A DNA stretch of 64,000 nucleotides from Ignavibacteria bacterium (GTDB lineage Bacteria; Bacteroidota; Ignavibacteria; UBA10030; SZUA-254), in contig JACOSY010000014.1 in NCBI GenBank assembly GCA_016178595.1, positions 4,256 to 68,255 on the forward strand. Direction: 5' to 3'. Shown here in pieces: positions 20,093 through 63,815 of this stretch (position 1 is the first letter of the stretch; each line of letters begins with the position of its first letter). The position numbers and the translations under genes were made by a program. The notes below the pieces were generated by a model. That model saw only the letters and a list, made by a program, of their open reading frames with translations, searched no databases and was not told the origin of the DNA.

Positions 20093-20452
20093 ATGAGGCT
20101 CTACGTAGGTAACTTGTCGCGCGACGTCAACGAAGACGATTTGCGCGAAACCTTCCAGGCATTCGGCAAGGTCGACGAGGTAGTCATTGTGAAGGATAAA
20201 TTCAACAGCGTTCCCAAGGGATTTGGCTTCGTCGAAATGCCCGACCAAACAGAAGCGCAGAAAGCCATCGACGAGCTGAGCGGAAAAGAATTGAAAGGCC
20301 GCTCGATCGATGTCAATGAAGCGAGGCCCAAGACCGATCGTCCGCGTGGCGGCGGCGGCGGTGGTGGTGGTTGGGGTGGTGGACGATCAGGCGGCGGAGG
20401 TCGTGGTGGACGATCAGGCGGCGGAGGTGGAGGTGGTGGTCGGCGCTGGTAA
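20093..20452 (+). CDS. Glycine-rich RNA-binding protein (single RRM)
   Basis: Start refined to MRLYVGNL (RNP2). RNP1 KGFGFVEM. C-terminal GGGGGG/RGG tail. Confidence 0.85.
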   Translation: MRLYVGNLSRDVNEDDLRETFQAFGKVDEVVIVKDKFNSVPKGFGFVEMPDQTEAQKAIDELSGKELKGRSIDVNEARPKTDRPRGGGGGGGGWGGGRSGGGGRGGRSGGGGGGGGRRW

Positions 20453-40616: not shown

Positions 40617-43600
40617 TTGAAGATAGGGATGTGGCGAAAGATGTGTCATAACAGAATATACTTTTGGCTTCTGGTTGCTGTGTTTGCCCCTTCGTTGCTT
40701 ATTGGGCAAACTCCCCGCCACATCAACGTACCTCACGAAAGTATTTCAGAAGCTCCGACGAACGCTCTGCGTATCCCCTTTCGTTATCGATTGCTTGGCC
40801 TGCCATTTGAGCGGACTGATTCTGTATCGACTCCAATACATCTCCGGAATGATTCACTGCCTCAGGAGAATGGGATACGCTCTTTCATGCATGGCAACGC
40901 TCTACCGAATCGCTTCCACCAACAGGATGTTACTCGCGGCAAGGGAACACAGTCGATGCAGGCAGATTCATCGATGACGTCGTCGAATGAATTGACCGTC
41001 GCGTGGGTTCAGCATTACGCTTCTAACCTCGTCTCCTCCTCGGACATTCCGAACGCACTTGCGACCGATCGTTTCAGCAACGTCATTGTCACGGGAGTGA
41101 GCACGGCAACGTTTTCCGATGGAGACTACCTGACCATCAAGTATGATCCGCAAGGGAATCAACTCTGGACTGCCCGTGCAGGAAACCCCTCCGGCGGATA
41201 CAGCGTAGCGACTGCGCTCGCAGTTGACCCACAAGGAAATATCTATGTTACGGGGTTCACCAAGAATCCTAACGTGAATTTCGACATCCTCACCATCAAG
41301 TACGACACCGCTGGACACGAACAATGGCGAGCAACCTATAACGGAGTGGCAGACAGCGATGATATTCCAATAGCAATGGCAGTCGATGCAAGTGGAAGTG
41401 TTTACGTTGCCGGCTACTCATACGACAAAGATTTTGATTATGATTATCTCGTTCTCAAATATACGCCAAATGGGATCGAGGAATGGTCCGATCGCTATAA
41501 CGGGATCGGTAATGGAATTGATATTCCGACAGGGATCGCCGTCGGCAATGGCAACGTTACAGTCACGGGAAATGCAGATGGTGGATCGACCGGTTCAGAT
41601 GTGGTAACCGTGCGATATACTACGGCTGGAGTAAGACAGTGGGTGGCTATATATGCGACAGCAGGGAAAGACCGTGCAAATGCTCTCGTCGTAGACGCAT
41701 TGGGAAACACCTACGTCGTGGGATCCGTGCAGGCCGACGCTTCTCCGACAGATTATCTTCTGGTGAAGTATACTCCTGAAGGTATTGAAGATTGGGTCAC
41801 TACATACAACGGGCCAACCAATCGCAATGACGTTGCCACGGGATTTGCTCTTGGACGAAATGGTGAAGGCTACGTCACTGGATTCAGTGAAGCGGGAAAT
41901 GGATACCCTGACGATGTCACGGAGAGGATTGATCTTCAGACTGGCGCAGCACAGTGGATTCAGCGTTACGATAATCCCTACCATGGCGCTGACATTCCTA
42001 TCGGCATCATAGTTTCTTCGGAGGGTTTGATCTACGTCTCCGGATATTCCAAGTATAACGTTGCCGCAGACTATGACTTTCTCACGCTGAAATACGATAC
42101 GGCGGGGAATCGGTTCTCGGAAGTGCGCTACAACGGTGTGGGAAAAGACGATATTGCTACGTCAATTGCGGCCGATTCGACCGGGAATATCTTTGTCGCT
42201 GGAGCGAGTAACGCTCAAGGCTTGGACTATGCGGTCGTAAAGTATGAAGCAAACTTGTATGGCGGCTGGTTTTCTACTTTTTCCGACGGCGCTGGTACTA
42301 GTGATGCTTCATCAGTTGCAACTGACAAAAGCGGAAACGTCTACGTTGCCGGGCAATCCGGCAATAACTTTATCACGATAAAATATAATCCGAGAGGCGA
42401 GAGGCAATGGGTTTCGCAGCTCCCGCAGATTCGGGGCGCTGCAACGGCGTTGAAGCTCGATTCCATTGGTCAACCATGCGTTGCCGGCTACGCTATCGAC
42501 ACTATGACGGGGTACCATGACTTCATCACGGCAAAACTCGACACGAACGGATCACTCCTGTGGAAAGACATTTACCGCGGCCCGTATGGTCGTAATGACG
42601 ACATAGTTGCGATGGCGATTGATGGGCAAGGGAATGTCTATGTGACCGGCCGGAGTTTCAGCACGGTAACCGGCAACGATTTTGTCACGATTAAATATGG
42701 CCCTGATGGTCAGACATTATGGATCGATATTTTTAATGGCGAGCTTGACCTTGATGATGAGCCTGCCGCGATTGTCGTTGATCCCATGCAGAATGTTATT
42801 GTAGTCGGAACCAGCATCCGCTCGCTTACATCCTCTGATTTTACAACGATCAAGTACAACCCCCAAGGGTATCGGCAGTGGATTGAATATGCCGACGGGA
42901 CAGGAAATGGCGTGGATCGTGCGAAAGCCGTATGCGTCGATAGCCAAGGAAACGTGATTGTTACTGGTCGAAGTTTGGGAATAGGATCAGGACCGGACTA
43001 CCTGACCGTCAAATACTCTCCATCGGGTGCTGAGAGGTGGCGAGCACGATTAACCAGAGGCCTCCAAACAGTCGATGAGCCGACTGCGATTGTCTCAGAT
43101 AGAATGGGGAGGATATACGTCACTGGCTTGAGCTACGAAAACTATACGAGCATCGACTACGGCACGGTCCAGTACGGTGCATCCGGTACGGAATTATGGC
43201 GATCATTCTATAACGGTCCTGCGAACGGTGTAGATTACCCGGTAGGACTTGTGCTGGATGCGAGCGGGAATATCTACGTGACAGGAACAAGCTTGGCTTC
43301 CGGATCGTCGACCGATATCGCGACAGTCAAGTATTCGAATGCCGGAAAAGAGCTTTTAGTTGATCGCTTCAATGGATTTGCCAGCTTAAACGACGCAGCA
43401 CATGCTATGACAATTGATACCGCGGGGAACGTTTACATCGCAGGAAATTCTGCAGATCAGGATGGTCGTTTGCAGGCATTGTTGATTAAGTTCGGTCGCC
43501 CGATTCAAGAGTCATGGCCCGTCCGCTATGATGGCCCCGGAGTGAGCATTGATCGAGTAAGCAATCTCGCTGTGGATTCTTCGGGTAATGTCTTTATCTC

Positions 43601-45113
43601 CGGACAAAGCACTCATAGCAACGCATCATCGTATGTCTGGACGATCAAATATAATCCACAGGGATCCGTGCTCTGGAATTCCTTGTCGACCGGTTCGGAC
43701 GAATGGCTGGGATCGCCGCGTGCCATCGCAGTCGACAAGAGTGGGTCGGCAATTGTCACCGGACTTTCCTATGCCTCGTTTAACGCGAGTTCCTATCGCA
43801 CGGTCAAGTACGATCCAAATGGAGCGCAAGAGTGGTCGCAATTATATGGCGGCAGCAGCTACAACTTCGCGGTAGCAAATGTCGTTGACGACAGTTCGTC
43901 GGTTTACGTCACTGGATATAGTGACAACGCTACAACGCATTATGATTTTGCAACATTGAAATATTCTTCGGATGGAATACAGAAGTTGGTTTCACGTTTC
44001 AATGGTCCGAACAATAACCCTGACGATCTCGTCTATGCGATGAAGCTTGATGCCCAAAAAAATGTCTATCTAACGGGACTTACATTTGACGCTACTACAG
44101 GAGGGGATTACGCCACCGTGAAATATGCACCGGATGGAACGCAATCCTGGGCATCGTACTATAACGGACCTGTCCATAGTGATGATCGTGCCCGTGACCT
44201 CAGCGTCGATTCACATGGCAATGTGTATGTTACGGGATGGAGTGTCGGTCCGGACTCGAGCTATGACTATTTGACTATCAAATATGATTCTGTGGGCGCA
44301 GAACAATGGATAGCACGTTATCACGGCCAACAGAGCGAAGAAGACCAGGCAACATCGATTGTCCTTGATAGCATCGGAAATGTCTACGTAACCGGATACA
44401 GCACCCCACCGCCATACATCAGCAGTGATATTATCACCGTGAAGTACGACTCGCTAGGTGTAGAACAGTGGGAACGTCGGTATGATGGTGAAGCGCACGA
44501 AGTTGACATTGCGAACGCGATGTTGATTGATCGCTCCGGATACATCTGCATTGCCGGTCAAAGCACGGCATCCGACGGTGTTCTTGAATCTTTAGTGCTT
44601 ATGTATGACGCAGAAGGTGTACTACGCTGGGTTGGTCGGTACCGGCTGCCGGGAAGTCTCACAAACGAAGCCAGGAAAATGGTTCTCGATGGACGTGGCA
44701 ATCTTTTTGTAACAGGAACATCAGCCGGAGTTGCATGGAGTGTGAGCACGACGATCAAATACAGTCACTCGATATCGAGTGCCGTCAGTAGCGATGCTTC
44801 GGTTGGGATGCATGACTTTGCGTTGCTTCGTAATTATCCGAATCCATTCAATCCGTCCGCAACGATTGAAGTTACTCTTGCTGGATTTGCCTTCCTGACC
44901 CTCAAAGTTTACAATATGCTCGGCCAAGAGATTGCGACATTGGCATCGCATGAGCGAGTGAGTGGCGGAGTGCATTACATAAAATTCGAAGGGATGAACC
45001 TGCCTTCAGGTGTCTATCTTTGCCGGATGAGCGCAGAGCCTATGTATTCTTCCGGCAATAAGGTCGACGGGCGTATGTTTACTGCAACAACTAAGATGCT
45101 CCTGCTTCGTTAA
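40617..45113 (+). CDS. Giant secreted SBBP beta-propeller-repeat protein with T9SS C-terminal domain
   Basis: More than 20 copies of a ~50-aa repeat (D.A.A.A.D..GN.YVTG.S....DY.T.KY...G). C-terminal CTD NYPNPFNPS...KVYNMLGQE...GVYLCRM. Confidence 0.85.
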   Translation: MKIGMWRKMCHNRIYFWLLVAVFAPSLLIGQTPRHINVPHESISEAPTNALRIPFRYRLLGLPFERTDSVSTPIHLRNDSLPQENGIRSFMHGNALPNRFHQQDVTRGKGTQSMQADSSMTSSNELTVAWVQHYASNLVSSSDIPNALATDRFSNVIVTGVSTATFSDGDYLTIKYDPQGNQLWTARAGNPSGGYSVATALAVDPQGNIYVTGFTKNPNVNFDILTIKYDTAGHEQWRATYNGVADSDDIPIAMAVDASGSVYVAGYSYDKDFDYDYLVLKYTPNGIEEWSDRYNGIGNGIDIPTGIAVGNGNVTVTGNADGGSTGSDVVTVRYTTAGVRQWVAIYATAGKDRANALVVDALGNTYVVGSVQADASPTDYLLVKYTPEGIEDWVTTYNGPTNRNDVATGFALGRNGEGYVTGFSEAGNGYPDDVTERIDLQTGAAQWIQRYDNPYHGADIPIGIIVSSEGLIYVSGYSKYNVAADYDFLTLKYDTAGNRFSEVRYNGVGKDDIATSIAADSTGNIFVAGASNAQGLDYAVVKYEANLYGGWFSTFSDGAGTSDASSVATDKSGNVYVAGQSGNNFITIKYNPRGERQWVSQLPQIRGAATALKLDSIGQPCVAGYAIDTMTGYHDFITAKLDTNGSLLWKDIYRGPYGRNDDIVAMAIDGQGNVYVTGRSFSTVTGNDFVTIKYGPDGQTLWIDIFNGELDLDDEPAAIVVDPMQNVIVVGTSIRSLTSSDFTTIKYNPQGYRQWIEYADGTGNGVDRAKAVCVDSQGNVIVTGRSLGIGSGPDYLTVKYSPSGAERWRARLTRGLQTVDEPTAIVSDRMGRIYVTGLSYENYTSIDYGTVQYGASGTELWRSFYNGPANGVDYPVGLVLDASGNIYVTGTSLASGSSTDIATVKYSNAGKELLVDRFNGFASLNDAAHAMTIDTAGNVYIAGNSADQDGRLQALLIKFGRPIQESWPVRYDGPGVSIDRVSNLAVDSSGNVFISGQSTHSNASSYVWTIKYNPQGSVLWNSLSTGSDEWLGSPRAIAVDKSGSAIVTGLSYASFNASSYRTVKYDPNGAQEWSQLYGGSSYNFAVANVVDDSSSVYVTGYSDNATTHYDFATLKYSSDGIQKLVSRFNGPNNNPDDLVYAMKLDAQKNVYLTGLTFDATTGGDYATVKYAPDGTQSWASYYNGPVHSDDRARDLSVDSHGNVYVTGWSVGPDSSYDYLTIKYDSVGAEQWIARYHGQQSEEDQATSIVLDSIGNVYVTGYSTPPPYISSDIITVKYDSLGVEQWERRYDGEAHEVDIANAMLIDRSGYICIAGQSTASDGVLESLVLMYDAEGVLRWVGRYRLPGSLTNEARKMVLDGRGNLFVTGTSAGVAWSVSTTIKYSHSISSAVSSDASVGMHDFALLRNYPNPFNPSATIEVTLAGFAFLTLKVYNMLGQEIATLASHERVSGGVHYIKFEGMNLPSGVYLCRMSAEPMYSSGNKVDGRMFTATTKMLLLR

Positions 45114-45338
45114 GTGTCTGAACTATCCGATTCGTGCCTTCCCTAAGAGTTCCATTAGATTGTATTAAGAAAGCGGAGTAGTTTCTTCATTGATCCTTGG
45201 AGTTGATGAGATTGCATTTCCTGGGAGGAAAAACTCTTGATTGTCGCTCATATCTTGCGTATCTTTACTTCTATCAGAACTTCAGACAAGACTGTTTGGC
45301 AGAAACAACTATCTTCAACTCATTATGATGGATTGTCC

Positions 45339-48300
45339 ATGATGGCTTTTTGCTACCGAAGGTTATGCATACTCTGCGCGTTCATCGTTATTTTTCTAAT
45401 GACAATCTGTACTTACGCGCAGAACTCATCGGAAGAAATCATTGGTACCCCATGGATTGGTGGGCGAGGAGTTGCTCTCAGCACAAGCGAGATCATGGCA
45501 AGGGCACGAGAACTCAATGCGCGAGGCGTACAACAACCTGTGAGGAAACACCCTGAACATGAGGTTGACCGAAAACACCTGCCATTAAATCCTTTTTCAC
45601 CCAATGTCTCACAGTGGCCGCCAAGACCAATTGAACAAAAATCCACTCAGGAGTCGGGTGTTCTTGCTCCTCAGACACTTTCTACTAATTTTACAGGAGT
45701 GACACTTGCAGATGCCGGCGCCTTCCCTCCGGATGGCATGGGGGCAATCGGTCCGACCCAATTCATAGTGGATGTCAATGGAAGAATTCGATCATTCGAT
45801 AAGAGTACGGGAATTGCCGATGGTGTTCTGGATGTTAACACGGACGTCTTCTTTTCTTCTGTAATGACACCGCCCCTCGCTACGAACTTCACATCGGATC
45901 CTCGTATACGCTACGATCGACTCTCCGGTCAATGGATGGCCATCATGATCGATGTTCCGGGGGGGAGTGGAACGCAGCCCAACCGTATCCTTCTTGCCGT
46001 GAGCAACACAAGCACAATCACGCTTAGCACGGTGTGGACGTATTTTTACTTTCGACAAGATTCCGTTCTACCCTTAGGCAATGCCAATCAATTCGCCGAT
46101 TATCCTACTCTCGGTATCGATAATAACGCGTTGTACATTGGTTGTAACATGTTTAACTCTTCTGGCGCTTTCACGGGTACAACTGGCTTTGTCGTGCGCA
46201 AAAGTTCTATTCTTGGTGCAGGCCCAATTGTTGTTACAGCGTTCCGTGGACTTGTCTCATCTGCGTCTGCTGCAGGGCCGTACACTCCACAAGGAGTCGA
46301 TAACTTTGACCCTTCGGCGACGGAGGGATACTTCATTGGTGTCGACAACGCAACTTTTGGAACTCTGATGCTGCGGAGAGTATCGAATCCAGGAACAACA
46401 CCATCGATCTCATCCAACATCTCATTGACGGTTCTCACAACGACGTTCCCTGTAACTGTTCCTCACCTCGGCAATACGCAAGGAACAAGCGGTGAGTTGG
46501 ATGCACTCGATGATCGTCTCTTTGCAGCCGTCATCAGGAACGGACATCTATGGACGGCGCACAACATTCGTGTATCGAACACCGGTAGTGTATCCGGAAC
46601 CACGAGTCGCGATGCCGCTCGCTGGTACGACATCACGAATCTTGGTACAACACCATCTCTTACGCAATCCGGAACCGTTTACGCGGCCACCGCTGCGAAC
46701 GATACGCTCCAGCGGAACTACTGGATTCCTTCGGTCATGGTTTCGGGACAAGGGCATGTTGCATTGGGATTTAGCACTGCGGGAGTGAGCGAACATGCGA
46801 ACGCGGGGACGGTTGGCCGGCTTTCGGGCGATGCTACTGGTACGATGCAGACTCCACTGCTATACACTGCAAGCTCGACTGCTTATAATCCGTCAAGCGA
46901 TCCTGGTGGTACCAGCGGGCGACGATGGGGCGACTACTCATATACGAGCCTCGATCCGAGTGATGATATGACGATGTGGACCATTCAAGAGTTTTGTGAC
47001 GCAACGAACTCATGGGGTTGCCGAGTTGCCAAGCTGCTTGCGCCACTCCCGGCAACTCCTTCAGCCACGGCGCCATCAAGCATTACGACCGGGACGACGG
47101 TGAACGTAACCGTGACGGGAACGTCTGCAAGCGGCTCGGGCTTCTTTGATCCAGGCACGGGATTCACCAATCGTCTTGCGGCAAGTGTCAATGGGGGAGG
47201 AGTCACGGTCAACAGTGTTACCTACACAAATCCAACAAGTCTAACACTCAACATCACAGTTGCAAGCAACGCAACGGCCGGTGGGCGAACGATCACGGCG
47301 ACAAATCCTGATGGTCAATCAGCAACAAGTACATCGGCAATCCTCACCATCAATTCAGGAAGTTGTCCGACGATTACGCTTTCCCCAACGACAGTGCCGA
47401 ATGGAACGGTCGGAACCTCCTACAACCAAACAATCACGGCGAGTGGTGGAACTTCACCATATACATTCGCCGTAACGAGTGGGTCACTTCCAGCGGGTTT
47501 ATCGTTATCATCGGGAGGTGTCATCTCCGGTACTCCGACCACAGCGGGAAATTCGAACTTTACGATCACTGCTACCGATGGAAGCGGAAATAATTGTACG
47601 GGTAGCCAGTCATATTCACTAACAATAAATGCAGCAGTGGTCACCGACATTGCACTCACCTCTCTTGGCTCGACCTACGCGCAGGACTTCAACACGCTGG
47701 CTTCGTCCGGTTCTTCCAATACCTGGACAGACAACTCGACCATTCCCGGGTGGTTTGCTTCGACAACCACCTATGCTGCATCTACCGGATCTTCAACAAC
47801 AGGCGCTTTGTACAGTTTCGGATCGTCTGGCAGTACAGAGAGAGCTCTCGGCTCACTTGTCACCAATGGGACCGGGGAAATCTCGTATGGAGCCCGTTTT
47901 GTGAATCAGACGGGATCGACCATTACGTCTCTTGCGATAAGTTATACCGGGGAACAGTGGCGTAATAATGGGAACACAACAGCTCAAACACTCGCGTTTC
48001 AATACCAAGTGGCAAATGCAGGAGTGCTGACGTCAATCACGAGCGGTACCTGGACGAATTTTTCGTCGCTCGATTTCACCAGTCCGATTCATACATCCAG
48101 TGCGAGCTCCCTCGACGGAAATAGTGCTGCGAATCGTACCGCCCTGTCGGCAACTCTAAGCGTTACGGCGGCGAATGGGCAGGAAGTTTGGGTACGATGG
48201 AGAGATGTAAACGATGCCGGAAACGATCATGGACTTGCTGTCGATGATTTCTCTCTAACGCCCAATGGAGTTTCTCCAACAAACCCCGCTGTTGTTGGTG

Positions 48301-51300
48301 CGGCGAATCCCTCAACAGTCACGGCGGGTAACACCACGTTGCTGACGGGAACGGTTACACCGGGTACAAACCCCTCAAGCACAGGCCTTGCCGTCACCGG
48401 AGACCTCAGTTCCATTGGCGGTTCAGCGACACAGCAATTTTATGACGACGCAACACACGGCGATGTGACGTCGGGAGATAATATGTTCTCCTTCTCCGCC
48501 ACCGTCGCACTGGCAACAACCGCAGGAGCTAAAACATTGCCATTGACGGTTACTGATGTGCAGTCCCGCAACGGAAGCGGATCTATTTCGCTGACAGTTA
48601 CCTCGCCGTCATGCCCAACAATTACGCTATCGCCCTCCACGTTGCCGAATGGAACAGTGGGGACAGCTTATAATCAAACCATCACGGCGAGCGGAGGAAC
48701 ATCACCCTATACCTTCGCGGTTACTGTTGGAACACTGCCTGCAGGTCTATCATTGTCCACCGGCGGCATTCTCTCGGGAACGCCAACGACGTCTGGGACA
48801 TCAAACTTCACCGTCACGGCAACTGATGCGAATACATGCACGGGCTTACAAGCATACTCATTGATAATTGATGCCGCTCCTCCTTCCGGCTCAATCAGTT
48901 TAACGGCGCTCGGTTCACCGTATACACAGGATTTTAACACGCTCGCGAACACCGGAACCTCGAGCACGGTGCCGACCGGCTGGGCATTCAGTGAAGCAGG
49001 GGCGAATGCAAATGGGGTATACTCGGCAGGCACAGGTTCTTCGACTAGCGGAGATACATGGAGTTTCGGTCCGACGTCGTCATCTGAACGAGCGTTCGGA
49101 GGTCTCCAGAGCGGATCTCTGAACCCAACGATCGGTGCGAATTTTACGAACAATACCGGCTCGACAATTGTCAGTCTCGCGATCTCGTATGCGGGAGAAG
49201 AGTGGCGGCTTGGCACGCGGAGCCGCTTTGATTCCTTGCGGTTCCAATTAAGCATCAATGCGACAAGTCTTACCACAGGAACATGGACGGCATACGGTGT
49301 GCTTGATCTCCGGACTCCGGATACATCGGGCGCAGCGGGATCAAGAGATGGCAACACAATTCGTTCGACGATTAGCTCGACAATCAGCGGCTTCTCTATT
49401 TCCAACGGCTCTACATTTTGGATTCGTTGGACAGATGTGGATGCAACGGGTTCAGATGATGGATTAGCCGTCGATGATTTCTCGCTAACTCCGAATGGTG
49501 CTTCACCGACAAATCCATCGGGTACCGGCGCCGCGAATCCCTCGACGGTCGCTGCCGGTAACTCCGCACTTCTCACGGTTACCGTTGCACCGGGAACGAA
49601 TCCTGCCAGTACTGGTTTGACAGTGACAGGAGATTTGAGCTCGATTGGCGGTTCGGCAACACAGCAATTCTTTGACGACGGATCTCACGGCGATGTCACG
49701 ACAGGTGATAATGTCTTCTCATTCCAGGCTACTGTTACAGTGGGAACAACAGCTGGAGCGAAGACGCTCTCGATCTCGATAGGAGATGCACAATCACGAA
49801 GCGGCTCCACAACCATCAGTCTCACCGTTCAGACTACCTGTCCTACAATTACACTGACTGCCCCACCACTTGCAAGCGGAACGGTGGGAGTAGCATACAA
49901 CCAACTCATCCAGGCAAGTGGCGGAACCGCACCGTATAGTTTTGCAAAGACAAGCGGTACATTACCGGCCGGTCTCACTCTCAATGCAAATGGCTCACTC
50001 ACGGGAACGCCAACCGCGGCTGGCGCTCCTTCATCTACAATCACAGCCACTGATTCGCTTGGATGCACGGGGAATAATTCCTATACAATAACCATTTCGT
50101 GCCCGACGATCGCACTTTCACCATCGTCGCTTCCCGATGGAAGTGTCGGTTCATCGTACAATCAAACGCTTAGCGCGAGTGGAGGGAGGTCGCCGTATTC
50201 GTTTGCGGTTACGTCCGGACTACTTCCGGGAGGAATGACACTTTCTTCCAGTGGCACACTCAGTGGGATTGCAAGCGCGTCGGGGAATTTCAGCTTCACG
50301 GTAACTGCGACCGACTCCTTCGGATGTATGGGCAGTCAGACATACACAATTATTATGAGTTGCCCATCGATTACAGTATCGCCTTCATCATTGCCGGGCG
50401 CAACGAACGGTACACCTTACAGTCAGCTCGTAACCGCAACTGGTGGTACGACTCCCTATACCTTCTCAGTGACAAGCGGATCATTGCCGACTGGAATTTC
50501 GCTCTCGAGTGCAGGTAGCTTGTCAGGAACACCAACTGTGACCGGCAGCTTTGACTTTACAATTCGAGCAATCGATAGTTCTGGATGTACAGGAACACGG
50601 CAGTATAGCATCATTGTTTCTTCTCCCGGGTGTCCGACAATTACACTCTCACCTTCGATTCTGCCGGATGGGACCAGTGGCACTGCATACAATCATCTCA
50701 TCACTGCGAGTGGTGGTGCAGCGCCGTATTCCTTTGGAGTATTAAGTGGTAGTCTGCCTCCGGGCATTAGCCTGTCGACTTCAGGAAACTTATCGGGGAT
50801 CCCAACGGCAAGTGGAGATTACAGTTTCACTATCAGCGCAACTGATAACTTAGGATGTGTCGGAACGCGAGGGTATAATCTCGCAGTCGCTCAAGGTTGT
50901 CCAATCATTGTGGTAGCCCCAACGACGATCCCCAATGGAATTGTCGGAGTTGCATACGCAGAGACACTGTCGGCAAGTGGAGGTATTGCACCGTATGTGT
51001 ATTCGCTTGGAAGCGGAAGTATTCCCGGTGGTCTCACTCTTTCATCAACAGGAATACTCTCTGGTACGCCAAACGGAGTGGATAGTACGAGTTTCACAGT
51101 AGCGGTAATCGACATGAATGGTTGTCCGGGTACGAAGCAATATTCGATCAAGATACTGCCGAATCCTCTGACTTCAATATCCGTGTCTGTCAAAGATCGA
51201 TGGAACCTGGTCTCAAATCCTCTGAAGACGAATAACGACTCAGTGGCCTTTCTCTTTGCCGGTGCAACGAGTCAGGCATTCGCTAATATTCCCGGATCCG

Positions 51301-52355
51301 GCTATCTACCTTCTTTGACTTTGAGCCAAGGAGTTGGATACTGGTTGAGATTCGATGTAAACCGGAAAGTGAATTTGACCGGCGTTGCAGTTGCGGCGGA
51401 ATCGGTCGATGTAGCTGACGGCTGGAATCTGATCGGATCGGTGTCATCGAAGATTCCTGCCTCGGCTCTCGCAGGGATTGGAACGAATGTACTCTCCCGG
51501 ATATTTGGATTCGATGGAAGTTACATCGCTGTTGATAGCATTGAGCCGGGAAAAGGCGTTTGGGTGAAGTGCGATGCACCCGGAAAGCTTGTCTTCTCAT
51601 CGGCGACTGGCATGATCCCATCTACATTGTCAAGAACTGCTGCGTACGATATGAAAGAATTTGACAAACTCGTCTTTACAGATGCCGATGGTGATCGACA
51701 GACATTATACCTCGGTGCGAATAGTGGCAGCGAAGTCGCTCTTGATCAATTTGCCCTTCCACCTTTTCCTCCTGCGAATGGTTTTGATGTCCGCTTCGAA
51801 GGTAATCGGATGTTGGAACTTTACCATCCTAACTCATTTTCGCAACAGATGTTTAAGATTATGATTCAAAGTCAAAGATATCCGATTACAGTTCGATGGG
51901 AAAGAGGCGCCGGGCCAACACAACGAATTTCACTGCGGAGTGTGAAAGGCGATCTTCTTGCAACGTCATCAGACTTGAATCGGTCCGGCACCTTCCGACT
52001 ATTAGACGATCGGGTGACATCGCTCGTAGTGAAAGTTCAGGATGCCAACCGGATTCCGGAGCAGGTGGTATTGTTTGAAAACTATCCGAATCCGTTCAAT
52101 CCTTCTACGAGGATTCGATTTGATCTACCGACAGAATCATTCGTAAGCCTGAAAATATTCAACACATTAGGACAGGAGGTCACGACTATCATTGACAACA
52201 GGCTTATGGAAGAGGGATTGCAGGAGGCTGAGTTCGACGCAGGATCTTTGTCGGCAGGTGTGTACGTATATCGGCTGACGGTAATTCCTCGTACTCAAGA
52301 GTCTGTATCAGCTATTCCTGTCATCACGTCGAAGAAGATGATTCTCTTGAAATAA
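45339..52355 (+). CDS. Giant (2338 aa) secreted multi-domain protein: N-terminal beta-rich domain, ~12 putative Ig (He_PIG-like) repeats, duplicated ~330-aa module, GWNLI-type domain, T9SS CTD
   Basis: Start refined to MMAFCYRRLC (in frame with 45237). Repeated CPTITLSP..GTVG.AYNQ.ITASGG..PY.F units. CTD NYPNPFNPS...KIFNTLGQE...GVYVYRL. Confidence 0.85.
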   Translation: MMAFCYRRLCILCAFIVIFLMTICTYAQNSSEEIIGTPWIGGRGVALSTSEIMARARELNARGVQQPVRKHPEHEVDRKHLPLNPFSPNVSQWPPRPIEQKSTQESGVLAPQTLSTNFTGVTLADAGAFPPDGMGAIGPTQFIVDVNGRIRSFDKSTGIADGVLDVNTDVFFSSVMTPPLATNFTSDPRIRYDRLSGQWMAIMIDVPGGSGTQPNRILLAVSNTSTITLSTVWTYFYFRQDSVLPLGNANQFADYPTLGIDNNALYIGCNMFNSSGAFTGTTGFVVRKSSILGAGPIVVTAFRGLVSSASAAGPYTPQGVDNFDPSATEGYFIGVDNATFGTLMLRRVSNPGTTPSISSNISLTVLTTTFPVTVPHLGNTQGTSGELDALDDRLFAAVIRNGHLWTAHNIRVSNTGSVSGTTSRDAARWYDITNLGTTPSLTQSGTVYAATAANDTLQRNYWIPSVMVSGQGHVALGFSTAGVSEHANAGTVGRLSGDATGTMQTPLLYTASSTAYNPSSDPGGTSGRRWGDYSYTSLDPSDDMTMWTIQEFCDATNSWGCRVAKLLAPLPATPSATAPSSITTGTTVNVTVTGTSASGSGFFDPGTGFTNRLAASVNGGGVTVNSVTYTNPTSLTLNITVASNATAGGRTITATNPDGQSATSTSAILTINSGSCPTITLSPTTVPNGTVGTSYNQTITASGGTSPYTFAVTSGSLPAGLSLSSGGVISGTPTTAGNSNFTITATDGSGNNCTGSQSYSLTINAAVVTDIALTSLGSTYAQDFNTLASSGSSNTWTDNSTIPGWFASTTTYAASTGSSTTGALYSFGSSGSTERALGSLVTNGTGEISYGARFVNQTGSTITSLAISYTGEQWRNNGNTTAQTLAFQYQVANAGVLTSITSGTWTNFSSLDFTSPIHTSSASSLDGNSAANRTALSATLSVTAANGQEVWVRWRDVNDAGNDHGLAVDDFSLTPNGVSPTNPAVVGAANPSTVTAGNTTLLTGTVTPGTNPSSTGLAVTGDLSSIGGSATQQFYDDATHGDVTSGDNMFSFSATVALATTAGAKTLPLTVTDVQSRNGSGSISLTVTSPSCPTITLSPSTLPNGTVGTAYNQTITASGGTSPYTFAVTVGTLPAGLSLSTGGILSGTPTTSGTSNFTVTATDANTCTGLQAYSLIIDAAPPSGSISLTALGSPYTQDFNTLANTGTSSTVPTGWAFSEAGANANGVYSAGTGSSTSGDTWSFGPTSSSERAFGGLQSGSLNPTIGANFTNNTGSTIVSLAISYAGEEWRLGTRSRFDSLRFQLSINATSLTTGTWTAYGVLDLRTPDTSGAAGSRDGNTIRSTISSTISGFSISNGSTFWIRWTDVDATGSDDGLAVDDFSLTPNGASPTNPSGTGAANPSTVAAGNSALLTVTVAPGTNPASTGLTVTGDLSSIGGSATQQFFDDGSHGDVTTGDNVFSFQATVTVGTTAGAKTLSISIGDAQSRSGSTTISLTVQTTCPTITLTAPPLASGTVGVAYNQLIQASGGTAPYSFAKTSGTLPAGLTLNANGSLTGTPTAAGAPSSTITATDSLGCTGNNSYTITISCPTIALSPSSLPDGSVGSSYNQTLSASGGRSPYSFAVTSGLLPGGMTLSSSGTLSGIASASGNFSFTVTATDSFGCMGSQTYTIIMSCPSITVSPSSLPGATNGTPYSQLVTATGGTTPYTFSVTSGSLPTGISLSSAGSLSGTPTVTGSFDFTIRAIDSSGCTGTRQYSIIVSSPGCPTITLSPSILPDGTSGTAYNHLITASGGAAPYSFGVLSGSLPPGISLSTSGNLSGIPTASGDYSFTISATDNLGCVGTRGYNLAVAQGCPIIVVAPTTIPNGIVGVAYAETLSASGGIAPYVYSLGSGSIPGGLTLSSTGILSGTPNGVDSTSFTVAVIDMNGCPGTKQYSIKILPNPLTSISVSVKDRWNLVSNPLKTNNDSVAFLFAGATSQAFANIPGSGYLPSLTLSQGVGYWLRFDVNRKVNLTGVAVAAESVDVADGWNLIGSVSSKIPASALAGIGTNVLSRIFGFDGSYIAVDSIEPGKGVWVKCDAPGKLVFSSATGMIPSTLSRTAAYDMKEFDKLVFTDADGDRQTLYLGANSGSEVALDQFALPPFPPANGFDVRFEGNRMLELYHPNSFSQQMFKIMIQSQRYPITVRWERGAGPTQRISLRSVKGDLLATSSDLNRSGTFRLLDDRVTSLVVKVQDANRIPEQVVLFENYPNPFNPSTRIRFDLPTESFVSLKIFNTLGQEVTTIIDNRLMEEGLQEAEFDAGSLSAGVYVYRLTVIPRTQESVSAIPVITSKKMILLK

Positions 52356-58003: not shown

Positions 58004-58168
58004 CAAGCATTCTCACCGACATCTATCACACTCGTGTGCGGAATCATTCCACCACAAAATAACAAGGGCAGGATCGATCTGCAGATGAACCCCGCCCTTT
58101 ACTGATTACGCATTATTACTCCTTTACTCCTCCCATGTTCGTTAGGCCTGAACGGACACGGGTACACC

Positions 58169-58552
58169 CTACGCAGCGGCCTTGGTAACTGCGTTGGTCT
58201 TCGCTTTCCGCTCGGGCCGCTTGTACTCACCGGCTTTCTTGAGTCCCATCGAAGCGACTTCGTCCGAGTCTTCGCCGAACTGGACGCTCACCGCTTTCTT
58301 GGCTTGCTTCATCGCCAGGTGGAACACGCGATCGGCGGCATCTGCCGCGTCTCGCTTCGCATTCCAGGCGTCGGAGGCAAGTTTCTCCTGGGCGCGGGCG
58401 GCAATCCTTGCATCGGCGAGCGCTTGGATCGCGTCCACCTTCACATCGGGATTATTGGGGTTGTACCCTGTCATTTCTTTCAGGGCAACGAGAGAGGCCG
58501 CGTCGTCGCGGATCGTATCCTGCGGGACGGGTCTCGGTTGTTTTGTAGCCAT
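58169..58552 (-). CDS. Hypothetical small alpha-helical protein
   Basis: 127-aa ORF, Ala/Lys-rich. No recognisable family. Lies downstream of the 21-bp repeat array. Confidence 0.45.
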   Translation of the reverse strand: MATKQPRPVPQDTIRDDAASLVALKEMTGYNPNNPDVKVDAIQALADARIAARAQEKLASDAWNAKRDAADAADRVFHLAMKQAKKAVSVQFGEDSDEVASMGLKKAGEYKRPERKAKTNAVTKAAA

Positions 58553-58819
58553 TGTCTGGCTCCTATGTATTGTGATACATCAGTGATTTAAGCCCAACTT
58601 GTGCTGGGCTGCCTCCAAGGTACGGGCTGGCAGGGAAAGTCTCAAATCGCGTGTGATGCAGACAACATGTGCGGCCGCGAGATCGTTGATTTCACCGGCG
58701 CAACCGTTCTTCGCACGCCGGTAATGCTTCGAAGCGCAAATGTTTCTATCCGAAGGAGCTTTGCTAAAGAGGGAAGCAACGCATACACAGAACATGCAGC
58801 CCGTGCAAGAGAGCGTGCA

Positions 58820-59150
58820 TGCCGTGCAATCGAACGATGCAGCTCCGCAATCGAACATTGCAGCCCTGCAATCGAGCATTGCAAAGTCATGCACGGTTTC
58901 TGTTAGCTGTTGTCGGATAAGAGGTTAGCCGGGCAGGAAAAATGTACACCCTGCAATCGAAGATTGGACCCCTGCAATAAAGGGTAGCAGGGATGCAATC
59001 AAGCGTAGAAGCCAGGCAATGAACGGAGGCATCTCTGCAATACACGATGCGCGGGTTGAAATGTAACGAGGGGAACGAGCAATAGACAGGGTGCTTACTG
59101 CAATTGAGAGAGGGAGGGGTGCAGTGAACGTTGGCGACAGTTCAACTGCC
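58820..59150. promoter_or_regulatory. Array of ~16 phased 21-bp repeats with palindromic core GCAAT-N5-ATTGC (operator/iteron-like)
   Basis: GCAAT recurs at 58826, 58847, 58868, 58953, 58974, 58995, 59016, 59037, 59058 (degenerate), 59079, 59100 and 59121, with exact 21-bp phase. The best units are palindromes, e.g. ccGCAATcgaacATTGCag. Confidence 0.6.
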
Positions 59151-59363: not shown

Positions 59364-62300
59364 TCACTTCATCAACACAATCTTCTTCACCGTGTTGTAG
59401 GATCGATTGTCTGCATTATCGATGGCGCTCATCCGCAGGAAGTAGATGCCGCTTGCCGCGCTCGTTCCATCCCATGTCACCTGATAGTAGCCCGCGTCTT
59501 TCGTTTCACTATCGACAAGCCGTGCTACTTCTTCACCCAGCACGTTGTAGATGCTGAGACTAACAACGCCTGGCGCCGCAAGGGCGTATTCAATGTTGGT
59601 GACAGGGTTGAAAGGGTTGGGGTAGCTGCCGCTCAGGCGCGTCTGTGCCGGGGTTCCGCCTTCTTCTCCACCGCCCCCGGTATGAAGCGCACCTTCAACG
59701 TAGCCGCTTCCTGCTGCGCTCACTGAAACTTTGTTCGACGCCGCAGAGAGTAGACAGGTTGAGCCGACTGCCTTCACCTGATAATAGTCTGTTGCCGTCG
59801 GTTGTCCGCCCATGCTTTTCGTCCAGACCTGCACGGCGTAGTCGGTATAGGTGGTGACGCCCGGCGCCGTCAAGCCGATCAACGATGGCGGGAGTGGATC
59901 CGGTCCCGTGCCGCAATCGCCTGTTCCATAAGCGCACGAGTACCGGTAGACCTGGTAGCCCTTGATGGTTCCAGTCGGTGCAGTCCAGTTCAGCTGGGGA
60001 TAGTAGACCCCTCCAACCAGTACCGATGGGGCAGTCAGGTTTGTCGGTGATGAAGGGGCAGTGCCTGTCGCACTTCCTGTCGTGAAGGTCCAGTATGCGG
60101 TAAAGGCTCCTTGCCCCAGTGCACCGAGAGTGGCCGCAACCCGCCAGTAGTAGGTTGTGTTGTAACCGAGAGCGGTACAGGGAATCTCGTAACTGGTAGA
60201 AGTCACCACGCCGTCGCTGACGACGGAGTAGCCCTGAAACGAATTATCGATCGAGACGACGACTTCATAACTTGTTGCACCTGTGACTGCACTCCAGCTC
60301 ACGCTCACCGGCAGTGCGAGTCCCGTTGCTGCGTTCGCAGGAGAGACAAGATTCAGGAACGATGCGGGTGGAATCGTTACCGTGTTGACACTGTAGAGAC
60401 CGCTTCCGGCGGATTTCAAGTACGTACAAGAACGAGTATTGTCCGTTGCACTTTGCGTGAGCACGGCGCTGGGTCCGGCCACAGTCGCTTGAGCATCCAT
60501 GAGCTGTGGCTCGCTCCACTTATCGAGCGAGGGATCGTACTGGCAGGTCACAAGTCCGTTGTTGGTCTGGAAGGTGACGACGACTTGCCCGCCAAGCCCG
60601 TTGGTGTTGTAACGATAGTCTGTGAGTGATGGAGCCTGGGCTGTGAAGCCGGCGCCGAAGCGGTGAAGTATCTCGTAACTACCGGAGACGACAGAAGGGC
60701 TGCTCGATGTACGCTTCTGCACTTTGATACTTGACACCGGACTCAATGAATTATACGTATCTTTGAATTCCCAGGCGATGAAGGAATTACCAAAAGCGTC
60801 CAATACAATCGAAGGATGAAGGTTCGTCTGGGAAGAGACAATAGAATTAATCGCACCGTACGTTGCCCACAAGATTCTGGTGCCGAGTGTGCTCGGGTCG
60901 GCGGGGAATTGATCGAACTTAGCATCGGCGTACTCGACGCCAACTCCGACTTCCTCCCAGGCAATGTAGAGCCGATAAGGTTTTGGATCGCCCGTGATGT
61001 AGCGAGCAGCGATTGCCGGGCTGGAGGAGCCTGTCCCGGTTCCGGGTACGGTACTGATATAGATATTGTTTGGATTTGCAGGCCAGATGACCGCGTACTT
61101 TAGACTTCCGGCGTCGCGCCATGCCATGAAGTAAAAACCCGCTGCTGAGGCAAGAGCGGGAATTGCCGCCTGATCACTTGTAGTTGTAAAGGATTGAATC
61201 GTTCCATGATTCACGAATGCGGGATTATTTGTAAACGATGTGCGAATCTCATGGTACCAACTCGTCGGACTTTGCTGCTGAACATATTCCCAAGCCTCCT
61301 GGTGACTGCCACCATCGTACGTGCTAACCGTTGGACCACGGTAAAAGGTAGATGTCGACGCTATGCCATCGAGAGCAGATTCATTGCTCCACGTGGCACC
61401 GTTGTCGGTTGAGTAGGTCGAAAAGCTCGTGTTGGCACTCTCATACACCAGCCTGAGAACCTGAGACCCGATATACGTGGACAGGAATTTGTGTTGACCT
61501 GAACCGGAGACTGCGGTTGCAATTGAGCTTAGGAGGTGACCTTTATACGAGGCAGTCACAATTCTTTGCGTGCCCGCATGGAATACAACCGGGCTCTCGT
61601 AGTAGCCATTCACGAGGTTGTACGGTAATGTGAGATCCGCATTCTCGGCTGACCAGCCTACAAAACTCCCTTGCTTCGTCTGGCCGTTCACGGTGAAGTC
61701 TTGCGTTGGTAACACGCGCACAGAGTAATAAGGCTTAGATTGATTTTGATCTGTTGGCGGTGTTTGATCCAATAAGACTCCTTTGAATTCAGACCCCGCC
61801 CCACTTGAATTCGTGTTGGGATTGAGCGGTGACGGATAGGCTTTGAACGGAGCAGCCAAAGCCTGATTCTGTAATTTTTGATAGCCCGTGTTGTACGCGT
61901 CCGGCAGCCATGGATCCTTGAACTCAACTACGCTGCCATTCTGCCCTCCATCGAGAAGCTGTGTTTGTATGGTTGCGTTGAGAGCACTCTTGAAGTATCC
62001 TCCTCTTTGGCCTCCAAGGTAGTAGCGGTTGGCGATAAGATTGTCGTAGAGGATGCTGGGTGCACTCGTAAATTCCCACCGCCAGAATTTCTGCGTGGTT
62101 CCTGTCCGATAGTCGGGGTTAGCATAAATGGTCAAGTCGTCACCGGCGTCGAGGTAGAAGGTGGTGGGGTTAGACCACAGTGTCCACGCCGTATAGTAAT
62201 CCCAGGTAGAGAATCCCCCGAAGCCTTGACTTCCTTCATCGATGTGAGCAATGGTGACGGCCGTGCTTCCTTGTCCGATCGTATAAACGGCATCGTTTAT

Positions 62301-63815
62301 AAGACTTGGATTATAACCCGATTTGAATCCTCGTGCTCTTAACCATGTGCTCGTACTGACGGTAATAACGCCGTTGTACAGCGGCGAACTTGTAGTCGGC
62401 TCAGTGCCGTTCGTGGTGTAGTGAATCTCAGCGCCTGCGGTTGCAGAGGTTATTGAGACTGATTGTGCTGTTGTGTATCGACCACCGGCGGGACTAAATT
62501 GCGGCGCTTCGACCGTGGGCAGGTTGGAAATAGTGAATGGAGAACTCATCCCGTATCCACTGACATTATCCAGCATCTTCAATTTATAGTCTCCATTGGG
62601 AATGCTTGTCGATATCGTCCAGTTCCACGGAGGATTGCTGCCTCTCACACTTGTTCCGGAATATGGAAGAGTACTGTAAAAATCATAACCACCGGAAATA
62701 TTTTTCTTATGCAATTCGATAAACATTGCTCCCCCTTTATTGTCTGTCCATGTAACTGCATGAGTGCTGCCTTGGCCCCAGACCACAAGGGCAGCGGGAG
62801 ACGTCACAGTAATGACTCTATTTACATTCCATCCTAAATCCTCAAGCATGCTCAATCCAAGTTCTCCAGGAGAATGGATGGCTTCTGCCATTCCGATATC
62901 CGGTGTCATGAGGGAATTACTGTTCCCGGCGGGGTACGTTCCTTCGTCGAGGTGTGCGATAGAACTGCCTGTAGACCAGTCACTCGGTGCATACAACTTC
63001 GGCAGAGAATTACTGTTCACCCAGTAAGAATTGATTCCGTCAAAATAGATATTATTGGAAACCAGTTCGGCACCTAATTCTCGTGATGGATTAGCATACT
63101 GGGATGTATTCGTGAGTTTATAAATGCTTGTACCGTGATTGTCGCCAACGATACAACCCTTGTCGAAAACGCTGGCGAATCCATTGTTTGGCGATGGAAA
63201 ATTACCCCAGCTTCCGCTCCCGGAGTTGACACCAAACGAGTGGATAAAACCGAGGCCATGTACGAACTCGTGCATAATAATAGATACAAGATCGAACTTG
63301 CCTGCCGGCGGATTGCCGTCAGTACCATAGTACCAGTTACTCTGATTACTATTCACCGTAAGGTCAACTTCGTGTGTAGTGCCATTTCGATTCTGACCAC
63401 TGAGCATCTCCACAAGTGCAATGGGATAGAGAGTGCCCGATTGAGGTGCACTTGGAAAATCCTTATCGTATGATGTGGGAGCTGCTTCCGCTAGTATGTT
63501 ATTGTCACTCAATGCTGTCCAATGCGCGTCGACAGTTATTGTCTGTGATGAATTTATCAAAAAAGACCAGATGGTAAGCGCATACTGAACGGCAGTCTTA
63601 GCACTATCCGGGAAATTTGCATCCGGATTCAGAACAATTGATGAAGTACTGACTTTCGCCAAACCGCTTCTCTCCGTGTAAACAGACGGTGGCCCAACCC
63701 TGGTGAAAGAATTTCTTTGCTTTCCCTCTATCCCCGCGACATGCGATGAATTGTGCTGGGTAAATGCCAAAGACGGTAATAGAAGGATAACGATAAAAAT
63801 GAATGCCGCTTTCAT
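59364..63815 (-). CDS. Giant secreted zinc metalloprotease-like protein (HExxH) with CHB_HEX_C-like and FN3 domains and a T9SS CTD
   Basis: Signal peptide. IMHEFVHGLGFIHSF metzincin-like motif. BNR-like STDNGATWS. C-terminal CTD SYPNPFNPV...SIYNVLGEE...GIYFLRM. Confidence 0.8.
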   Translation of the reverse strand: MKAAFIFIVILLLPSLAFTQHNSSHVAGIEGKQRNSFTRVGPPSVYTERSGLAKVSTSSIVLNPDANFPDSAKTAVQYALTIWSFLINSSQTITVDAHWTALSDNNILAEAAPTSYDKDFPSAPQSGTLYPIALVEMLSGQNRNGTTHEVDLTVNSNQSNWYYGTDGNPPAGKFDLVSIIMHEFVHGLGFIHSFGVNSGSGSWGNFPSPNNGFASVFDKGCIVGDNHGTSIYKLTNTSQYANPSRELGAELVSNNIYFDGINSYWVNSNSLPKLYAPSDWSTGSSIAHLDEGTYPAGNSNSLMTPDIGMAEAIHSPGELGLSMLEDLGWNVNRVITVTSPAALVVWGQGSTHAVTWTDNKGGAMFIELHKKNISGGYDFYSTLPYSGTSVRGSNPPWNWTISTSIPNGDYKLKMLDNVSGYGMSSPFTISNLPTVEAPQFSPAGGRYTTAQSVSITSATAGAEIHYTTNGTEPTTSSPLYNGVITVSTSTWLRARGFKSGYNPSLINDAVYTIGQGSTAVTIAHIDEGSQGFGGFSTWDYYTAWTLWSNPTTFYLDAGDDLTIYANPDYRTGTTQKFWRWEFTSAPSILYDNLIANRYYLGGQRGGYFKSALNATIQTQLLDGGQNGSVVEFKDPWLPDAYNTGYQKLQNQALAAPFKAYPSPLNPNTNSSGAGSEFKGVLLDQTPPTDQNQSKPYYSVRVLPTQDFTVNGQTKQGSFVGWSAENADLTLPYNLVNGYYESPVVFHAGTQRIVTASYKGHLLSSIATAVSGSGQHKFLSTYIGSQVLRLVYESANTSFSTYSTDNGATWSNESALDGIASTSTFYRGPTVSTYDGGSHQEAWEYVQQQSPTSWYHEIRTSFTNNPAFVNHGTIQSFTTTSDQAAIPALASAAGFYFMAWRDAGSLKYAVIWPANPNNIYISTVPGTGTGSSSPAIAARYITGDPKPYRLYIAWEEVGVGVEYADAKFDQFPADPSTLGTRILWATYGAINSIVSSQTNLHPSIVLDAFGNSFIAWEFKDTYNSLSPVSSIKVQKRTSSSPSVVSGSYEILHRFGAGFTAQAPSLTDYRYNTNGLGGQVVVTFQTNNGLVTCQYDPSLDKWSEPQLMDAQATVAGPSAVLTQSATDNTRSCTYLKSAGSGLYSVNTVTIPPASFLNLVSPANAATGLALPVSVSWSAVTGATSYEVVVSIDNSFQGYSVVSDGVVTSTSYEIPCTALGYNTTYYWRVAATLGALGQGAFTAYWTFTTGSATGTAPSSPTNLTAPSVLVGGVYYPQLNWTAPTGTIKGYQVYRYSCAYGTGDCGTGPDPLPPSLIGLTAPGVTTYTDYAVQVWTKSMGGQPTATDYYQVKAVGSTCLLSAASNKVSVSAAGSGYVEGALHTGGGGEEGGTPAQTRLSGSYPNPFNPVTNIEYALAAPGVVSLSIYNVLGEEVARLVDSETKDAGYYQVTWDGTSAASGIYFLRMSAIDNADNRSYNTVKKIVLMK

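Follow-up and report, generated by a model that had tools for sequence, protein, structure and literature searches.

The question raised by this locus is what purpose is served by a dense array of 21-bp repeats lying between the gene for a protein of 1483 aa that has a T9SS sorting tail (59364-63815, minus strand) and a 127-aa ORF (58169-58552, minus strand). Coordinates refer to the window, which is the whole 64-kb stretch of DNA that was analysed, and the position of the array between the giant gene and the small ORF had been given correctly in the original prediction for this region. Judged from comparative sequence data, the array and the small gene appear to form a widespread, previously undescribed two-part bacterial unit, and the array is most likely the docking site of the adjacent helical protein of about 120 residues, the binding of which we infer. 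The features of the unit, from the outer end of the array to the 3' boundary, are as follows.

58953-59147, no strand: distal repeat cluster, nine 21-bp units in the GCAAT register (repeat family D1)
58953, 58974, 58995, 59016, 59037, 59058 (GAAAT), 59079, 59100 and 59121 (GCAGT): starts of the distal units
58889-58952, no strand: central non-repeat core, reading ...CATTTTTCCTGCCCGGCTAACCTCTTATCCGACAACAGCTAACAGAAACCGTGCATG in gene orientation
58805-58888, no strand: proximal repeat cluster, four units starting at 58805 (GCAAG), 58826, 58847 and 58868
58646-58804, minus strand: array-to-promoter region with a weak residual 21-bp signal, 75% identical to locus L003
58617-58645, minus strand: putative sigma-70-type promoter, TTGAGA (58645-58640), 17-nt spacer, TACCTT (58622-58617)
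58169-58552, minus strand: ORF of the 127-aa protein, from a family of alpha-helical proteins of about 120 aa with a basic C-terminal tail
58045-58099, minus strand: 3' boundary of the unit, a terminator-like hairpin (AAGGGCGGGG...CCTGCCCTT) and the T-rich run behind it

Organization of the repeat array

The array spans 58805-59147 (plus-strand reading) with a 21-bp periodicity, and its 13 recognisable units are arranged in two clusters, four proximal and nine distal, on either side of the 64-bp non-repeat core. About 16 units had been predicted; the array is real, but that figure counts the core as repeats. The distal series covers 58953-59141, with a degenerate GCAAT in two of the nine units. 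Ten exact plus-strand copies of GCAAT (58826, 58847, 58868, 58953, 58974, 58995, 59016, 59037, 59079 and 59100) occur within 280 bp (58826-59104), compared with 94 across the 64-kb window, where the background elsewhere is about one per 680 bp. Over 58800-59150 the self-match at a lag of 21 was 0.50 and harmonics appeared at 42 and 63; the highest-scoring 200-bp windows at this lag in the entire window were those of the array region (0.54, against a mean of 0.27 and a standard deviation of 0.04). Tandem Repeats Finder (TRF) called a period of 21 at 58826-58883 and 58974-59020, in agreement with the repeat finder, and neither TRF nor the lag-21 scan found a second 21-bp array in the 64-kb window.

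The predicted exact 21-bp spacing holds within each cluster and fails between them, the registers being offset by 1 bp (58953-58826 = 127 = 6x21+1), so that not every site lies on exactly one DNA face, as had been proposed. The two units singled out earlier as the best-preserved inverted repeats, GCAATcgaacATTGC (58847-58861) and GCAATcgagcATTGC (58868-58882), were confirmed as perfect GCAAT-N5-ATTGC palindromes. They are the last two units of the proximal cluster and the only perfect ones in the array; one further unit is a palindrome with one mismatch, and the distal units retain GCAAT alone. The feature common to the units is a direct repeat, in which a conserved block, nnTnnATTGCAnnnn, is kept per unit while the remainder drifts. 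A search for additional GCAAT-N5-ATTGC sites, suggested with the original prediction and run on the window with one mismatch allowed, gave three sites outside the array, against 3.1 expected in total, and thus no enrichment. Among the arrays of other loci described below, an inverted repeat of at least 4 bp is conserved in only 20 of 61. The arrays are thus not defined by a palindrome, and the dimeric binder that had been suggested is not implied.

The 1.1-kb unit and its closest relatives

The array, the leader, the 127-aa ORF and the terminator make up a unit of about 1.1 kb (58045-59147) that was found again in other genomic contexts. In two metagenome contigs, L003 and L004, the encoded protein is 84% identical to that of the window, the flanking genes are different, and DNA homology with the window extends from 59147, the outer end of the array, to 58045, just past the terminator-like hairpin. 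The array belongs to a transposable-looking unit and not to the intergenic region as such. Conservation in relatives, another check attached to the prediction, came out in its favour, the array being kept in both contigs. Alignment showed that L003 has exactly one 21-bp unit fewer than the window, missing from the proximal cluster. Identity between the window and L003 is 85% at GCAAT positions and 64% at the other unit positions (Fisher p=0.002); the central core (58889-58952) is 83% identical, compared with 64% for the non-motif repeat positions.

The source is a metagenome-assembled genome of Ignavibacteriae (GCA_016195625.1). A second copy in this genome, L002, encodes a protein 83% identical to that of the window, and DNA homology between the two is confined to the ORF and the 3' end. 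Upstream, L002 has its own 21-bp periodic region made of unrelated units (e.g. GCGAC-CCTTC-GTCGC), also arranged in two clusters around a partly homologous core. The non-repeat core is thus kept between paralogs with unrelated repeats (58889-58952 in the window, 2060-2125 in L002), the two having ATTTTTCC...GG(C/T)TAAC...G(C/G)TAAC in common. The terminator-like hairpin is conserved in both L002 and L003. Between the array and the small gene of L002, positions 2370-2450 contain a long near-perfect hairpin, CCCTCACCCCCGTCCC...GGGACGGGGTGAGGG, with the look of a REP-type element.

The window and L003 are 95% identical over the N-terminal 44 residues of the protein and have homologous arrays, and the window and L002 are 96% identical in the C-terminal part, only 57% identical at the N-terminus, and have unrelated arrays. 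This one triad, which is the basis for co-segregation of N-terminus and array, shows the array apparently travelling with the N-terminal 44 residues and not with the rest of the protein, a pattern that plain physical linkage fits equally well. The correlation between array similarity and N-terminal identity was weak (rho 0.14).

Linkage of 21-bp arrays to the small-protein gene

Species-representative genomes supplied 14 homologous loci (Verrucomicrobia, Zoogloea, Cytophagaceae, Prevotellaceae, other Bacteroidota, Acidobacteriota and Chthoniobacterales) and metagenomes a further 80, obtained with a narrower family alignment; additional ones came from the cyanobacteria Nostoc sp. UHCC 0926 and Anthocerotibacter panamensis. 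Upstream sequence of 400 bp or more was available for 74 loci, a set that includes about seven near-duplicate locus pairs. The strongest upstream self-match was at a lag of 21 or 42 in 63 of them and at 43 in one, and an equivalent array therefore stands before about 86% of the homologous genes. The same best match was found in only two of 78 downstream regions. Arrays are present in both cultured cyanobacteria, Nostoc sp. UHCC 0926 and A. panamensis, and a few family members (L038, L088) have none. The mean lag profile of about 60 arrays has peaks of 0.56, 0.58 and 0.52 at 21, 42 and 63 over a baseline of 0.25, with no peak at 20, 22 or 10-11 and hence no internal sub-period, and many arrays show a 42-nt super-period. 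The median array has 11 units (10th-90th percentile 8-16, range up to 24) and ends about 139 bp from the ATG.

The repeat sequence is different in almost every locus, including the window and L002 within one genome, and no core is common to all arrays. Each unit of the degenerate arrays nevertheless keeps a contiguous block of 6-11 bp while the rest varies; short cores are common to related proteins, such as GCGTCCT/GTCCTT and GATGCTTCC, and ATGC, TGCA and GCAA-type words are over-represented. Close relatives differ in array length by whole 21-bp units. Such variation in unit number between relatives, together with the degenerate units of the window, is what a neutral, decaying minisatellite without function would display. 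That explanation is extremely improbable, since it does not account for an exact period that recurs, with unrelated repeats and across at least seven phyla, beside members of one gene family (about 64 of 74 loci), or for selective conservation of the core motif, and the comparative data make it untenable.

An all-against-all comparison of flanking ORFs at 96 loci revealed no conserved partner gene. The loci lie among unrelated housekeeping or other ordinary chromosomal genes, with several copies per chromosome, and the sole gene that always accompanies the arrays is the small-protein gene. Because the repeats are not the same even in two copies from a single genome, whatever reads the motif must be locus-specific, and as the small ORF is the only locus-specific gene, its product is the candidate for the specific binder. 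The original prediction had named no cognate regulator and had used the small "hypothetical gene" only as a landmark; the absence of a regulator nearby is probably wrong, this gene being the likely partner.

Two modules stand in tandem about 1.5 kb apart at L094 (approximately 640-2860), with a common promoter and leader and different arrays, and the first gene has lost an internal segment (MAKNETVRLAQEKSERKAPARSGKADK, then a stop).

Promoters and the array-gene interval

The lag-21 signal of the window is high from 58681, and detection of the extent of the periodic region gave 59148-58667. Sigma-70-like promoters were called with our own consensus scan, which placed a putative -10 element ending 64 nt before the ATG of the small gene; a stricter promoter scan of the window found no promoter, so the sigma-70-type promoter at 58617-58645 is a prediction only. 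L003 has the counterpart TTGAAA-N17-TACCTT at the same distance, and in ten loci, including the window, a sigma-70-like match lies between array and gene and ends 51-64 nt before the ATG. This constant distance places the array in the position of an upstream operator. About 160 bp separate the end of the window array from the putative -35 downstream of it, more than in most loci, and in L049, L046 and L034 the array extends to within 25-45 bp of the ATG, so that the promoter must overlap the array or be located upstream of it. Within one repeat family, the phase from the last repeat to the -35 is 9-12 (out of 21) in five of the six loci, which are related to one another.

A sigma-54-like motif, GGCAC-N5-TTG(C/T), was found at -73 to -110 from the ATG in L005, L010, L011, L014, L017, L026 and L081, and the unit seems to swap promoter type between lineages (sigma-54-like or sigma-70-like). 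A universal sigma-54 promoter with the array as its enhancer was rejected, as the motif is present in only these seven loci.

The small protein and its family

The family of the 127-aa protein has 507 representatives in 50% identity clusters (E<=1e-3) and 599 matches in 90% clusters, that is, at least 500 clusters from at least seven phyla, with hosts in Ignavibacteriota, Bacteroidota, Acidobacteriota, Verrucomicrobiota, Cyanobacteriota, Chloroflexota and Betaproteobacteria. All members are annotated as hypothetical except three with evidently automatic JGI labels (GntR, CheZ), and no match was obtained in Pfam, NCBIfam, PHROG, PADLOC or PDB sequences. Most members from metagenome and cluster loci are on very short contigs of 1-3 kb, which suggests that arrays or multiple copies break short-read assemblies and that the family is probably under-sampled.

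The AlphaFold2 (AF2) monomer model (pLDDT 87) consists of a flexible or disordered basic N-terminal arm, a helix at residues 11-26, a conserved YxPxN loop and a 54-residue helix at residues 39-92. The N-terminal part is variable across the family and the basic tail, GLKKKSEYKRPxR, is conserved. Foldseek with this model returned nothing from PDB or BFVD; no HTH, winged helix or evident ribbon-helix-helix was recognisable in it, and no Pfam RHH match was obtained at E<0.1. As modelled, the protein would suit oligomerisation and groove contacts, though the fold is not a known DNA-binding one.

The lack of a known DNA-binding fold is also what would be expected if the array were a sequence-independent element, in which in-phase bends produce curved or superhelical DNA. 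Such DNA would modulate the promoter either by itself or by way of a host nucleoid protein that reads its shape, and the small protein would be no more than the regulated product. The period (21, 42 or 43) is conserved and the sequence is not, no motif is common to all arrays, there is no strand bias, and the arrays lie just upstream of promoters, all of which agree with curvature. Curvature alone leaves unexplained why a contiguous 6-11-bp core is kept while the rest decays, why related proteins keep related cores, and why the arrays are tied to one gene family and not to many promoters, the 64-kb window having no other 21-bp array, and we consider this explanation unlikely. Docking of the small protein on a short core in each unit is the reading preferred here.

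Coding, RNA and CRISPR readings

A coding heptad repeat (21 bp being seven codons) was rejected, as each of the six frames of the window array is interrupted by stop codons; the same is true of 17 of 65 arrays, and no strand is preferred. CRISPR was also rejected, in accordance with the original prediction, because the 21-bp units are contiguous and without spacers.

The repeats could alternatively act as RNA, either as an antitoxin or sponge that binds the downstream protein in the manner of type III toxin-antitoxin (TA) systems, or as a protein-titrating 5' leader for translational control. The type III systems ToxIN, CptIN and TenpIN have repeats of 31-62 nt in 1.9-5.6 copies, a promoter upstream of the repeats, a terminator between repeats and gene, and a ToxN/AbiQ-like endoribonuclease toxin (PMC3401426). 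The family loci resemble them in the tandem repeats upstream of a small stand-alone protein gene, and in being compact, horizontally spread units with several copies and differing repeats, a ToxIN-like layout (PMC3401426); the arrays of L034, L046 and L049, which come within about 25-45 bp of the start codon, and the 42-nt super-period of many arrays would also fit an RNA. However, ten or more loci have promoter-like sites in the interval from array to gene, only four of 59 have a terminator-like hairpin there, the units are 21 nt long in 8-24 copies, and the protein is unrelated to the toxins. On these differences of promoter position, terminator, unit length and copy number the type III toxin-antitoxin reading was rejected. 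An array of RNA hairpins was rejected as well, since a conserved hairpin would be possible in only a third of arrays (the 20 of 61 with a conserved inverted repeat). G.U-compatible mismatches are balanced between the strands (102 vs 120), and with respect to the gene the arrays show neither GC skew nor AT skew. Rfam 15 gave no match in the window at gathering scores, and permissive thresholds gave only spurious miRNA-type hairpin matches in the window and 13 loci; the units of the window are, moreover, too degenerate to be equivalent RNAs. A function of the repeats as RNA is therefore very unlikely.

Comparison with iterons, partition sites and KfrA

The iterons of plasmids with an autoregulated initiator, such as pPS10, pSC101, R6K, F and P1, are asymmetric direct repeats of about 17-22 bp, spaced about two helical turns apart. 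They are found directly ahead of the promoter from which their binder is expressed, and their sequences are replicon-specific. The present arrays share the phased direct repeats two turns apart, with a period of exactly 21 bp, and the position upstream of the promoter of a putative binder. They differ in having 8-24 units where iterons have 3-7, in a chromosomal setting with several copies per genome and near absence from plasmids, and in an adjacent protein of 120 aa that is all-helical and unrelated to the winged-helix Rep. An adjacent Rep gene had rightly been reported as missing, the linked gene being that of a 127-aa helical protein without a Pfam or NCBIfam match. A replication origin was rejected, and with it the origin-type function that the iteron comparison in the original prediction could imply: there is no Rep, DnaA boxes with one mismatch number 10 in the window against 11.6 expected, with none within 4 kb of the array, and cumulative GC skew has no extremum at 58.8 kb. 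A plasmid or phage origin of the unit was likewise rejected, given that the 72,556 PLSDB records contained a single match, located on a Nostoc replicon of 1 Mb, and that INPHARED and IMG/VR contained none.

In the ParR/parC systems of R1 and pSK41 a small protein coats phased tandem repeats upstream of its operon, and in parC of plasmid R1 two sets of iterons flank the promoter. Phased upstream repeats are common to these systems, omega, ParG and StbA and to the present loci, and the two clusters of the window clade flank a core. The differences are the absence of a motor gene and of a ribbon-helix-helix match, the chromosomal and not plasmid or phage location, and a unit of 21 bp where theirs are 7-11 or 20 bp.

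KfrA of plasmid RA3 has a long self-interacting helical region and binds tandem direct repeats at its own promoter, and its repression depends on repeat number and orientation (PMC7783346). It is a plasmid-borne protein of 355 aa with a mapped N-terminal HTH and five 9-bp operator repeats overlapping the promoter, and it interacts with ParA/ParB homologs (PMC7783346). In the present family a long helix is modelled and a direct-repeat array lies upstream of a predicted own promoter; no HTH was detected, and no sequence or fold match to KfrA was found. The literature searched on 21-bp tandem repeats and iteron-like chromosomal arrays contained only KfrA and the type III TA systems as relevant comparators.

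These parallels raise a further possibility, that the protein-coated array is a centromere-like, pairing or positioning site of the ParR/parC, KfrA or StbA type and acts in DNA segregation or chromosome organisation and not in gene regulation. The many phased tandem repeats, the neighbouring small protein with its helical region for oligomerisation, the two repeat clusters around a conserved core in this clade, and the precedent of RA3 KfrA, an alpha-helical autoregulator on five 9-bp direct repeats (PMC7783346), point in this direction. Against this, no ParA, ParM, TubZ-type or other gene is conserved beside the family genes at the 96 loci, the units are essentially absent from plasmids (the single PLSDB match) and absent from phage collections, and several chromosomal copies occur in ordinary contexts, so that a segregation role is judged quite unlikely. 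By analogy, the plasmid iteron layout is closest at the DNA level and KfrA of RA3 at the protein level, and ParR/parC-type segrosomes are a further parallel; iterons, ParR/parC and type III TA each have at least one defining feature that is not matched here, and the HTH of KfrA has no detected counterpart.

Proposed mechanism

An iteron- or operator-like assembly site for a DNA-binding protein, as first proposed, is still the best-supported explanation of the array, with the small protein as the likely binder. Our tentative model, to which we give not quite an even chance, is a two-part unit in which the array is an iteron-like operator and the adjacent protein assembles on it at its own promoter. 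The unit would comprise an array of 8-24 direct repeats phased at 21 bp (two helical turns), a promoter and the small-protein gene. The protein would recognise a short core in each repeat, ATTGCA in this window, with one protein unit, probably a dimer, per 21-bp repeat. The 54-residue helix would enable oligomerisation, copies being placed side by side on nearly one DNA face and zipped together by their long helices into a cooperative nucleoprotein complex abutting the promoter of the protein itself. Autoregulation would be the immediate consequence of such a complex, which may possibly have a structural or positioning role as well.

A broader version of the model is possible, though on the unlikely side: a new class of self-contained DNA-protein unit, in which a protein of new fold polymerises on its own array, arrays and N-termini co-diversify into orthogonal pairs, and the function lies outside replication, partition and toxin-antitoxin activity. 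Orthogonal pairs would in that case let several independent copies coexist on one chromosome, and such units might act, for example, as a heritable bistable switch or as a device for the marking or pairing of chromosomes.

If the assignment of the small protein as binder holds, one family of array-plus-protein units comes to light, hundreds in number, all uncharacterised and absent from Pfam, NCBIfam, Rfam and the literature searched. The strict 21-bp rule combined with free sequence turnover would let them serve as a clean natural test of how helical phasing works in assemblies of protein and DNA, and the naturally differing array-protein pairs could supply orthogonal DNA-binding parts. Because homologs occur in cyanobacteria that can be cultivated, Nostoc sp. 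UHCC 0926 and Anthocerotibacter panamensis, the question can be tested directly.

Other features of the window

A 27-bp tandem repeat of 2.3 copies (91% match), GGTGGTGGACGATCAGGCGGCGGAGGT, is located at 20375-20436. Two consecutive giant ORFs of 1498 and 2372 aa occupy 40617-52355, and the precomputed contig annotation assigns He_PIG repeats and a T9SS sorting tail to the 2372-aa ORF.
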